Source of the DNA: Gammaproteobacteria bacterium
Lineage (GTDB): Bacteria; Pseudomonadota; Gammaproteobacteria; Pseudomonadales; Pseudohongiellaceae
DNA length: 64,000 nt
Reading direction: 5' to 3'
Assembly (NCBI GenBank): GCA_040218615.1
Contig: JAVJRC010000004.1
Coordinates: 77,659 to 141,658 of the forward strand
The notes under the pieces: generated by a model
What the model was told of the DNA's origin: nothing
Databases searched by the model: none
The model's input: only the letters and a program-made list of their open reading frames with translations
Shown: in pieces, positions 4,966 to 35,000 of the stretch
Numbering within the stretch: the stretch's first letter is position 1
Layout of the letters: the number at the start of each line of letters is the position of its first letter
Position numbers and translations under genes: made by a program

Positions 4966-5295
4966 CTTTATACCTTTTGGGTTAGGCCTCCACACACCCC
5001 ATGGTTCAACCCAATCCCGATGAAAAAATTGGGCACCCAGAACACACGTGTCGGTGTATGTGCGACGTTAAATAGTTAATTTACCCAGTATCACCCGGAA
5101 TGGGTGCCTGAGCGGGGCGCTTTATACCATAATCTGCTGATTTTCGAAACAATTTCGCTTACTTAGGGTTTGTAAATTAAGCATTCCAGGTTGGATCTTC
5201 GAAGTTGGTCCACTAAGGTGACTATGAAGGGCTTTCCGGGCACGTTTTGGACTCTGGAAGTCCTGATTCTAGAACCGAGGATGGTCGGATTCGGC

Positions 5296-5465
5296 AGCGG
5301 GATTGCACTTTCCGGACACGCCGTAAACCCGGGCCCAGCCACCGATCACAGATCGGTGTCGTTCGCCTGTCGCTGCGAGCTGCGCTCGCAAAACGCTCGG
5401 GCTCACCCCTGGGGGCTCGGGAGCAGCATCCCTGCTGCTCACGGTCCGGAAAGTGCAATCCCGCT
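5296..5465 (-). repeat. Structured palindromic element, long form, copy 1 (core on minus strand)
   Basis: Perfect 22 bp inverted arms (5296-5317 / 5444-5465). They enclose a ~125 nt core that is near-identical to the core at 30079-30203 in reverse complement. Confidence 0.85.
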
Positions 5466-5652
5466 CCCAAATCCTGAGAGGGCCCGTGAACCTTTCATCC
5501 CGCCCCGCTCTCTCACGCTGCACTTGAACTCTGCGGAATTTAGGTGGTGTTATGTAGCTCACCTCTGGTGGTTATAAAAGAAGAGCTTCTCTATTGCTCA
5601 GGCTGGTGCTGATATCGATAGAAGCTCGAGAAGAAAGATGCGCAGGAGTTCG

Positions 5653-5764
5653 AGGATGAGGGTCAGAAGGCTTAGATTGGGACCGTGAGCAGCAGGGATG
5701 CTGCTCCCGAGCCCCCATGGATGGGTTCACGGCGTGTCCCACTCTAAGCCTTCTGACCCTCATC
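5653..5764 (+). repeat. Structured palindromic element, short form, copy 2
   Basis: 30 bp inverted arms (5653-5682 / 5735-5764) with one mismatch. The core shares GGGACCGTGAGCAGCAGGGATGCTGCTC...ACGGCGTGTCCC with copies 1 and 3 but lacks the ~75 nt central module. Confidence 0.85.
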
Positions 5765-5896
5765 CCATCTGGCACTCCAGCAGTTTCAGGTTCAAACCCA
5801 ACAAAACCAGGACCGAGCATCGCTGTAATCCAAGGGGTGACTGCTTTAAAATAGCCGCCTTTCGCAAACCGGGCCAAAGCCCCGTTGTAGTAGCTG

Positions 5897-29991: not shown

Positions 29992-30048
29992 TCACGTCAT
30001 AGAAAATTTTTGGTGGTGGCCCGCTTAGAAAGTAGCTCCGAACTACGA

Positions 30049-30233
30049 GGATGAGAGTCAGAGAGTGTAGTTTGGGACCGTGAGCAGCAGGGATGCTGCT
30101 CTCGAGCCCCCAGGGGTGAGACCGAGCGTTTTGCGAGCGAAGCTCGCAGCGACAGGCGAACGACGCCGATCTGCGATCGGCGGCTGGGCCGGGTTTACGG
30201 CGTGTCCCACACTACACTCTCTGACTCTCATCC
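30049..30233 (+). repeat. Structured palindromic element, long form, copy 3
   Basis: 30 bp inverted arms (30049-30078 / 30204-30233) with one mismatch. The core is near-identical to the reverse complement of 5318-5443. Confidence 0.85.
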
Positions 30234-30434
30234 AATCGGGCACTATGTTCTGAATCGGGTTGCCATCACCAACATGACTGCCAACTTTACAATATCCGGC
30301 AGGACAGCGATCATCCGCTGCTTGCCCATACTGGAATTCCTCCTGATTCAACCAAGCCGTAACCAAACCCCATGTGTAAAAGGTCTCTGCCAAAGGCGCA
30401 TTCCTTTTATTTTTCATAGAGTTAGCACAACATC

Positions 30435-34923: not shown

Positions 34924-35000
34924 TGGTGTCCCCGGGCCGATTTGAACGGCCGACCTAGCGCTTAGGAGGCGCTTGCTCTATCCAGCTGAGCTACGGGGAC
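34924..35000 (-). tRNA. tRNA-Arg (anticodon CCU)
   Basis: The minus strand reads GTCCCCGTAGCTCAGCTGGATAGAGCAAGCGCCTCCTAAGCGCTAGGTCGGCCGTTCAAATCGGCCCGGGGACACCA. Cloverleaf with 7 bp acceptor stem, CT-CCT-AA anticodon loop, TTCAAAT T-loop and encoded CCA. Confidence 0.93.

Follow-up and report, generated by a model that had tools for sequence, protein, structure and literature searches.

A dispersed palindromic repeat of Pseudohongiellaceae with a covarying three-way junction, a core related to the Yersinia element YPAL/RU-2 and putative CsrA/RsmA-type loops

The DNA considered here, a stretch of 64,000 nucleotides from contig JAVJRC010000004.1 of a gammaproteobacterium of the family Pseudohongiellaceae (the window in what follows), holds three copies of a long intergenic palindrome, and the question raised by this locus is why the interior of the palindrome is the same in all copies when the arms enclosing it are not. 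A preliminary description, made from the letters of the window, had offered two answers: a core that inserts into pre-existing palindromes, or a functional RNA that needs only a generic closing helix. Each copy is a near-perfect stem of about 30 bp with copy-specific sequence, capped by a common core of 52 nt, or of 125-126 nt when an optional module is present. The inner hairpins measure 112-188 nt, and about 270-290 nt at most together with an outer helix; their stems have stabilities of -82 to -122 kcal/mol, and each copy folds much better than its shuffled versions, at z = -9.3 to -11.0 (-6.6 to -11 over all folds run). The hairpin that had been described as invariant in all three copies is indeed so, its 20-mer GAGCAGCAGGGATGCTGCTC being found exactly 3 times in the window against 0.02 expected. 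The reading that we propose, and hold with about as much belief as doubt, is a combined one, in which the repeat would be a mobile, self-folding RNA module that binds CsrA/RsmA.

The structure of the core was derived from a covariance model (alignment A2, model R1) built from 72 distinct copies; the loci and contigs that were collected and searched beside the window carry L-numbers below. In this model the core, which is exactly 52 nt long in most short copies, is a three-way junction abutted by the outer helix P1. P2 pairs core positions 1-10 with 17-26 in a stem of 8-10 bp with a conserved U3·Y24 mismatch, and P3 pairs positions 31-33 with 40-42 (UAC/GUA) and probably continues, past a bulge of five bases (UUYAC), with 28-30 paired to 48-50; A27, G51 and U52 are left unpaired. 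Mutual information picks out pair 2:25 and pair 30:48 as covarying, the latter occurring as C:G, U:A or G·A. Standard pairs make up 96.1% of the paired cells of the alignment compared with 66.6% after shuffling, and 545 cells are changed on both sides compared with 137. The covariation score of 0.742 stands against 0.166 for the shuffled alignments and was reached by none of 500 shuffles, and in a control where the partners were slid by 1-3 columns it was at most 0.12. RNAalifold independently recovers P1, P2 and P3. The inner 25-35 bp of P1 are near-perfect and its outer part is imperfect; its sequence is free and its two sides are kept complementary. As the outer and both inner helices covary strongly and the junction and loops are fixed, selection rather than recent descent is indicated.

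Two irregularities of the helices were observed besides. At a distance of 6-7 bp from the junction 12-14% of the P1 pairs are non-Watson-Crick, two to three times the 4-5% of the positions beside them; the Pseudohongiella copies have a fixed 1x1 mismatch there (e.g. 5677/5742 and 30072/30210), and YPAL, a Yersinia element introduced below, has an internal loop at the same place; this may be a structural or recognition feature. Some P2 stems (L023, L045, L054, L083, L088, L092, L108 and L122) contain symmetric GGA/GGA or GA/AG internal loops, which, as in GC-GGA-GCC-AUGGAU-GGC-GGA-GC, put extra GGA triplets beside the loop site.

The core has been seen before. By its sequence it is homologous to the centre of YPAL/RU-2, a miniature inverted-repeat transposable element (MITE) of Yersinia, and the RU-2 sequence of Y. 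pestis (Delihas, PMC2759123) holds it as AAAGCGU-CCGCGCCAAGGAUGGCGCGG-CUCGAGC-CUACAUGGAUGUA-UUUACGGCGU-CUUUAC. The homology is confined to these central ~52 nt, the arms not being alignable. Conservation of the interior had been called the opposite of attC or MITE logic, which is right for attC, where the pattern is reversed, but not for MITEs, since the core is itself the centre of one. Rfam gave zero matches at the element at gathering thresholds and, at permissive ones, only Ysr224 and generic microRNA-hairpin models; its Csr/Rsm models had no match there. The Ysr224 model (RF02770) scores 33.8 bits at 5680-5790 on the minus strand (E = 1.6e-6 to 5.6e-6, varying with the stretch searched), below its gathering score of 70 and on the strand opposite to the structurally constrained one, and its consensus is the reverse complement of the YPAL 3' arm plus core, that is, the antisense of YPAL/RU-2. 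Known ribozymes and riboswitches were ruled out as candidates on the lack of any Rfam family at gathering score, the lack of a gene association and the 30-bp closing helix.

The family is broad across the Gammaproteobacteria and extends beyond its previously described host range. YPAL itself is presented, in the accessible part of its published description, as a uniform repeat of 167-168 bp in Yersinia and Erwinia carotovora only. A scan for the exact 20-mer in one genome per species gave true copies in Pseudohongiella, Porticoccaceae/HTCC2207, other Pseudomonadales and a metagenome-assembled genome of Psychrobiaceae, together with a partial copy in Shewanella and five chance matches in coding DNA. 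A degenerate pattern with the stems left free, which required CAGGGATG and GGA and is to that extent biased in what it ascertains, gave at least 131 matches at no fewer than 120 metagenome loci, and the covariance model found at least 189 copies in 136 collected loci of Gammaproteobacteria and metagenomes, 47 of them outside the search pattern. The same model gives the YPAL-like copies of metagenome contig L107 scores of 59-64 bits. BLAST against E. coli genomes and PLSDB plasmids was negative, and the degenerate pattern gave no match in the IMG/VR viral contigs, so that no phage link is seen. Several independent short-read assemblies of close relatives have contigs that end within the core of copy 2 or 3 (L139:1-38 and the contig ends of L149-L151), and a practical consequence is that the repeat fragments metagenome assemblies at these loci.

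Only one strand of the element folds. Over a fixed 25-bp stretch beside the junction, chosen without scoring bias, 110 distinct copies contain 126 G·U pairs compared with 23 A·C pairs (p = 2e-18), and G·U pairs are the more numerous in 63 of these copies and A·C pairs in 6. This five-fold excess means that one specific strand folds, and it is the strand carrying GGA in the loops. The bias is alike for co-oriented (34:3) and opposite (24:5) neighbouring genes, and both members of head-to-head pairs, which occupy opposite DNA strands within a few hundred bases of each other, have it (17:1 and 18:4), for which reason it cannot be put down to a mutation bias due to the replication strand or to host transcription. 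What is constrained is the sense strand of each element itself. Of the functional RNA with a generic closing helix that had been proposed, a structured and strand-specific nucleic acid is borne out by the covariation and the G·U excess, and the folding strand may act as RNA.

These observations bear on the role that has been suggested for YPAL, that of a generic hairpin stabilising or terminating messenger RNA. Here only the stem would matter, and the core would have been kept by recent descent or gene conversion. The extreme stability of the stems agrees with such a role, as does the position of the copies, which by rough calls of open reading frames (ORFs) lie at median distances of 75-86 nt from gene 3' ends and 136-146 nt from 5' ends, and YPALs are, according to the part of the literature accessible to us, co-transcribed with upstream genes and possibly of influence on the stability of the upstream transcript. 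We nevertheless consider it improbable, as a plain hairpin works both ways round, yet the fold is strand-specific; the covarying core stems with their fixed loops and junction indicate selection; and the core sequence stays the same from Yersinia through Pseudohongiella to the metagenome lineages, whereas arms and termini have become unrecognisably different.

What the fixed loops resemble is the binding site of CsrA. The CsrA consensus obtained by SELEX is RUACARGGAUGU with ACA and GGA invariant; CsrA sites place GGA in a loop of six bases whose stem does not exceed 4 bp, RsmE structures contain an ANGGAN hexaloop, the CsrB repeats read CAGGA(U/A/C)G, and a single CsrA dimer spans two sites at a distance of 10-63 nt, best above 18 nt (PMC4347634, PMC7652899). 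The P3 sequence, N-U-A-C-A-N-G-G-A-N-G-U-A, forms a stem of 3 bp with an ANGGAN loop closed by C:G and matches the SELEX optimum, and the tip of P2 is C-[A-N-G-G-A-N]-G. Where the search pattern had fixed only GGA, the P3 positions are conserved as C33 in 78/78 copies, A34 in 75/78, G40 in 76/78, A32 in 58/78 and U41 in 57/78. The 47 copies found by the model alone retain GGA, have any of the four bases at the N positions and end the loop in U, C or A, which argues for a hexaloop and not an A:U-closed tetraloop. The two GGA triplets of the 52-nt core are 23 nt apart, inside the published dimer-bridging range, and among 183 distinct copies the motif is present twice in 158, once in 20 and not at all in 2. 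Expanded copies at L005/L007 have gained two extra P3 hairpins that are again of the C-ANGGAN-G type (GCAC-AAGGAU-GUGC and GGC-AUGGAU-GCC), giving four sites. The tip may bind a CsrA/RsmA dimer, and this binding may be the reason for its invariance; the Csr/Rsm system is described in a review as gammaproteobacterial. A literature search gave no paper connecting CsrA with YPAL or MITEs, and for YPAL no description of a junction, strand bias, CsrA-type loops or divergent pairing.

The mobility of the element is most easily seen in its young copies. In one subfamily, with two copies on L067 and one each on L038 and L129, the same 165-bp unit, arms included, stands at different loci with sharp borders and imperfect terminal inverted repeats of ~20 bp, and it is flanked by 8-10-bp direct repeats (GCGCCGAT, GAGAGAGGGC and CTCCTCGCGC) that lie outside the arms, so that the arms move together with the core. 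These copies bear the signature of transposition with target duplication. A second subfamily has kept its termini (TACTAAGC..GAAC / ..TTAGTA) and its core, and the middle of its arms varies. The three copies of the window look old, and at none of them can a target duplication be made out. Among the 150 flanking ORFs 165 Pfam families occur, none more than three times, and the 25 most frequent include no transposase, RAYT, reverse transcriptase or integrase.

After insertion the arms co-evolve and the tip is kept. The copies at L005/L007/L012 and at L011/L014 differ via G·U intermediates, and copy 2 of the window and copy 2 of L144, which occupy the same intergenic region, have arms that are ~70% identical with compensated differences, at a distance where the Map proteins are 90% identical and the surrounding intergenic DNA is no longer alignable. 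The arms had been called unrelated; they are copy-specific, as stated, but GGATGAG.GTCAGA...TTGGGAC, with compensated differences, is common to the arms of copies 2 and 3, and the ends of all three arm pairs are GGAC/GTCC. Close relatives differ between filled and decayed alleles. At the rpoE-nadB site, within near-identical flanks, L146 has the window's element and L147/L148 a much-diverged allele in which the outer arms and the 5' inner arm are present and the core and 3' arm are missing; at the rpsB-map site, L142 has a similar 5' arm standing alone. The two arms of the window differ from the L147/L148 allele at the same positions and have therefore changed in concert, which suggests conversion between the arms or a recombination event that replaced the allele. 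The block 29994-30286 is the only stretch strongly diverged from the near-identical sister genomes, being about two-thirds identical to them by eye.

The first of the two original proposals, by which the core is a small insert placed in the middle of palindromes already present and the arms are host sequence, can be judged on the same data, and we find it scarcely credible. Some copies within one genome do have completely different arms, the YPAL targets are reported, in secondary literature, to span or adjoin dyad symmetries, and core-less alleles with outer arms and one inner arm exist in sister genomes (L147/L148 and L142). The young copies, though, share their arms and 20 nt beyond, with target duplications outside, which places the arms within the transposed 165-bp unit, and the sister copies of one region have compensated arms. 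Empty-site palindromes, whose existence this proposal had raised, did not appear: no core-less long palindrome or other long inverted repeat was found in the 64-kb window, and the core-less alleles, having one inner arm only, are more simply internal deletions of old elements. Natural perfect palindromes of 25-35 bp are moreover implausible as an abundant target.

Mobilisation by RAYT or by an IS200/IS605 system was also considered. IS200/IS605-type mobility makes no target duplications, and such duplications are present here; GTAGC is weakly enriched downstream (8 copies compared with 1.9 expected), and this candidate remains unsupported. The suspicion that the arm pairs are merely target-site features of a REP/RAYT or IS200/IS605 system is likewise not substantiated by the 25 top Pfam families of the flanking ORFs. 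CTAC/GTAG-like strings occur downstream of some copies, with no flanking motif strongly prominent.

Copies that lie at most 300 bp apart follow a strict rule of orientation. Among 27 such neighbours 25 are divergent (minus first, plus second), 2 are convergent, both of these in one array on L082, and none is tandem. Copies 1 and 2 of the window form a divergent pair, as do the L144 copies in the same intergenic region, and the inner stems of such pairs are usually separated by a spacer of 44-98 nt. With this arrangement a read-through transcript meets an antisense copy first and a sense copy second. The rule could have arisen mechanistically, as a trace of how the element inserts or duplicates, or could mark a functional unit, and head-to-head pairs may accordingly be the functional or the mobile unit. 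Divergent pairs were also noted at L004, L005/L007, L015, L028, L036, L039, L078, L114, L122, L132 and others. The array at L082:3829-4823 has at least 5 copies of alternating orientation with alternating gaps of 124/190 bp and a period of 466 bp, resembling a BIME cluster.

A further explanation takes the repeat for an independent small RNA gene, a sponge of the CsrB/RsmZ kind with its own promoter and terminator, the paired copies sharing a bidirectional promoter. Multiple GGA loops are found in CsrB/RsmZ as well, and both sense strands of a pair point outward from the 44-98-nt spacer, which looks A+T-rich in several pairs. Upstream sigma-70-like promoters are on the contrary depleted (4 compared with 9.5 expected), T-runs number 18 downstream and 25 upstream, and many spacers are too short for two promoters outside the arms. 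Around copies 1 and 2 neither a sigma-70-like promoter nor a site resembling a terminator turned up, the spacer 5475-5653 included in the promoter search, and around copy 3 there is no terminator and the sole promoter-like site lies downstream of the element (30286-30314). This makes the gene-like explanation very unlikely, and an own or bidirectional promoter was rejected for want of enrichment upstream of the copies.

Given all of this, the combined mechanism that we favour would run as follows. The element spreads by transposition as a whole unit, as the marks at the outer ends of the young copies show. Its sense strand, with GGA in the loops, would then fold by itself, presumably as RNA, at any locus where it is inserted, because the long helix insulates the tip from the flanks. 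The tip would bind a CsrA/RsmA dimer and so tether CsrA to the host transcript, or the copies would collectively titrate it, and the hairpin would presumably protect the RNA from decay. The comparison of sister genomes shows that after insertion the arms drift at about the rate of neutral DNA and stay complementary, with the tip held by selection. In its evolutionary form the proposal is that of a gammaproteobacterial transposable family whose cargo is an insulated double CsrA/RsmA site, the tip being kept by selection on binding and the arms and termini turning over; this we put forward tentatively, with somewhat more doubt than belief.

Several of our data weigh against this mechanism. The case for binding of CsrA/RsmA by the tip consists of motif identity, and a single-stranded transposition intermediate would give the same strand signal as a folded RNA. 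The metagenome pattern required part of what was then found conserved, as noted above. The sites are lost in some copies: the P3 site is absent from copies 1 and 3, L015 and L017, both sites of copy 1 of L144 have been lost to insertions, and decayed remnants lie at L140-L143 and L147/L148. Six-frame translations of the window and the collected loci gave no csrA by a simple motif regular expression, csrA being a single small gene that may lie elsewhere. The upstream gene agrees in orientation with the copy in 52 cases and runs opposite to it in 43, which is no orientation bias, although these are heuristic gene calls that mis-called the window's own neighbours. To this come the promoter counts and the missing promoters around copies 1 and 2 given above, the position of that pair, which is apparently upstream of both the rpsB and the map promoter, i.e. 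between them, and the fact that the only transcript on record for the family, Ysr224, is of the antisense strand.

The marks of mobility can also be explained without CsrA, if the repeat is a purely selfish MITE whose junction is a cis signal, presented as a folded single strand (single-stranded DNA or RNA) to the mobilising machinery, and whose likeness to CsrA sites is a matter of chance. The target duplications given for Yersinia in the accessible part of the YPAL description range over 3-26 bp, which is at odds with a standard DDE transposase. Mobility is evident from the terminal inverted repeats, the target duplications and the identical units found dispersed; promoters are not enriched, the head-to-head rule (25/27) resembles a mechanistic footprint, and a G·U bias that is independent of neighbour orientation and present in both pair members is as expected from a transposition intermediate. 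Known transposases act at the ends of an element and not at its centre, whereas here the termini differ between subfamilies and the core is constant, and none of the 25 top Pfam families of the flanking ORFs is a transposase, RAYT or reverse transcriptase. A selfish MITE would also leave unexplained the C-ANGGAN-G in both loops, the agreement of P3 with the SELEX optimum and the added hairpins of L005/L007, and same-locus copies in sister genomes still show G·U intermediates and compensated arms. We regard it as possible, if rather unlikely.

Coordinates of the features of the three window copies are collected in Table 1. Copy 1 lies on the minus strand, as had been described, with perfect 22-bp arms (AGCGGGATTGCACTTTCCGGAC) at 5296-5317 and 5444-5465, and its helix reaches 31 bp when one mismatch and one G·U are allowed. 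The arm helix of copy 2 consists of 23 bp, a U·C mismatch and 6 bp, and extends imperfectly to ~5637-5820; that of copy 3 likewise continues imperfectly beyond the perfect arms, which adds to the earlier account. The 3' junction strand of the copy 1 core is GGGTTTACGGCGT. A search of the whole window with the covariance model, filters off, gave no further copy.

Table 1. Positions of the repeat copies and their parts in the window
Feature	Position	Strand	Detail
Copy 1, long form, inner hairpin 188 nt	5287..5474	-	5' arm 5444-5474, 3' arm 5287-5317
Copy 1 core, 126 nt	5318..5443	-	P2 hairpin 5418-5443, loop AGGGAU 5428-5433
Copy 1 optional module, ~76 nt, in place of P3 loop	5331..5406	-	two hairpins, zero GGA
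Copy 1 module hairpin GCGAGC-GCA-GCTCGC	5375-5389	-	
Copy 1 module hairpin CACCGATC-TGT-GATCGGTG	5340-5358	-	
Spacer between copies 1 and 2	5475..5653	.	divergent, head-to-head pair
Copy 2, short form, 112 nt	5654..5765	+	arms 5654-5683 and 5736-5765
Copy 2 canonical 52-nt core	5684..5735	+	covariance model score 90.9 bits
Copy 2 P2	5684-5709	+	hexaloop AGGGAU 5694-5699
Copy 2 GAGC	5709-5712	+	
Copy 2 P3	5714-5725	+	hexaloop AUGGAU 5717-5722
Copy 2 bulge UUCAC	5726-5730	+	
Copy 2 GGCGU	5731-5735	+	
Copy 3, long form, 185 nt	30049..30233	+	arms 30049-30078 and 30204-30233
Copy 3 core	30079-30203	+	P2 loop AGGGAU 30089-30094
Copy 3 optional module	~30116-30190	+	
Element 3, full extent	29994..30286	+	outer imperfect helix 30010-30276

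The modular architecture noted in the preliminary description is present, with 73-74 extra nt in copies 1 and 3 at the point where copy 2 has a short loop. That loop had been taken for a tetraloop and is in fact the six-base loop A-U-G-G-A-U closed by C:G. Copy 2 therefore has two C-ANGGAN-G sites, and copies 1 and 3 have one each, in P2 (AGGGAU in copy 1), because the lineage-specific ~75-nt two-hairpin module replaces the P3 loop. The compensated change from CGCCGATC-TGC-GATCGGCG in copy 3 to CACCGATC-TGT-GATCGGTG in copy 1 (CGCC.../...GGCG to CACC.../...GGTG) is reproduced in our alignments, and so is the loop-only difference between GCGAGC-GAA-GCTCGC and GCGAGC-GCA-GCTCGC. Over five long-form copies the module stems covary by compensated changes (GCGAGC/GCTCGC, GCAAGC/GCTTGC and GCAGGC/GCCTGC). 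This module is Pseudohongiella-specific and was also observed at L015:5045-5195, L017:1594-1738 and L144:1870-2060; its insertion point is exactly the P3 GGA loop, so that the P3 site is abolished, and at L144 other insertions occupy exactly the P2 loops.

Copies 1 and 2 stand head-to-head between the divergent genes rpsB (-) and map (+, start 5897), and copy 3 stands between rpoE (-) and nadB (+), which are also divergent. Homologues of the Map protein agree with a placing of the window in the Pseudohongiellaceae. The rpsB leader contains a t44 RNA (RF00127, 69 bits) at 4981-5082 on the minus strand, and this RNA and the adjacent promoter-like region are the only conserved parts of the rpsB-map spacer among the sister genomes. 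A tRNA gene (Rfam tRNA, 65 bits) at 34927-35000 on the minus strand is unrelated to the repeat.

If the tip does bind CsrA, the repeat would be a mobile element that distributes sites for a post-transcriptional regulator. With each insertion a transcript would be brought under the Csr/Rsm regulon or a scattered CsrA sponge would be enlarged, and Csr/Rsm regulons could be rewired quickly and horizontally. There would then be a pool of CsrA ligands not counted before, roughly 37-144 YPALs per Yersinia genome by the figures in the accessible part of the YPAL literature, and the invariant centre of a small selfish repeat across distant genera would be explained. Regardless of CsrA, YPAL becomes a broad gammaproteobacterial family and is no longer a curiosity of Yersinia, and a covariance model for it now exists, Rfam having had only a narrow model of the opposite strand. 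The rule of divergent pairing and the concerted change of the two arms each offer a clean, testable pattern.

It remains to compare the repeat with known systems. Like an integron attC site, it is an imperfect palindrome that folds as a single strand in a strand-specific manner, but attC conserves its outer ends and varies its centre, the reverse of what is found here, and no integrase is among the top neighbour families. With REP, BIME and REPIN sequences it shares the intergenic palindromes folding as single strands and often arranged as inverted doublets, with the L082 array as the closest case; it differs in its much larger size, in having a conserved tip instead of a 5' GTAG/CGTC tag, in the presence of target duplications and in that RAYT is not among the top neighbour families. 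The Ysr224 model, in turn, is specific to Yersinia, includes arm sequence and describes the opposite strand. With CsrB/CsrC and RsmX-Y-Z the repeat has in common GGA hairpins of the C-ANGGAN-G type at a dimer-bridging spacing, up to four of them in the expanded copies. Unlike those RNAs, most copies have two sites, without a promoter or terminator that we could find, and the sites sit on a three-way junction atop a helix of 30-60 bp in a dispersed, mobile and multi-copy element. The nearest relative is YPAL/RU-2 (De Gregorio et al. 2006, Delihas 2007), which has the same central ~52 nt (stem-CGU, the (A/G)GGAU-loop hairpin, CUCGAGC, CUACAUGGAUGUA and UUUACGGCGU-stem), is likewise a long imperfect palindrome, of ~165-170 bp in the young copies, and is intergenic, multi-copy and flanked by target duplications. 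YPAL lies near gene 3' ends; across the collected loci the copies are nearer to 3' ends by rough ORF calls, and those of the window lie between divergent genes. The repeat described here differs from it in its host, Pseudohongiellaceae as against Yersinia and Pectobacterium, in its optional 75-nt module, and in arms and termini that are copy- or lineage-specific, so that the tip alone is shared. What appears to be new is the breadth of the family, its covarying three-way junction, the strand specificity, the CsrA-type loops and the divergent pairing.

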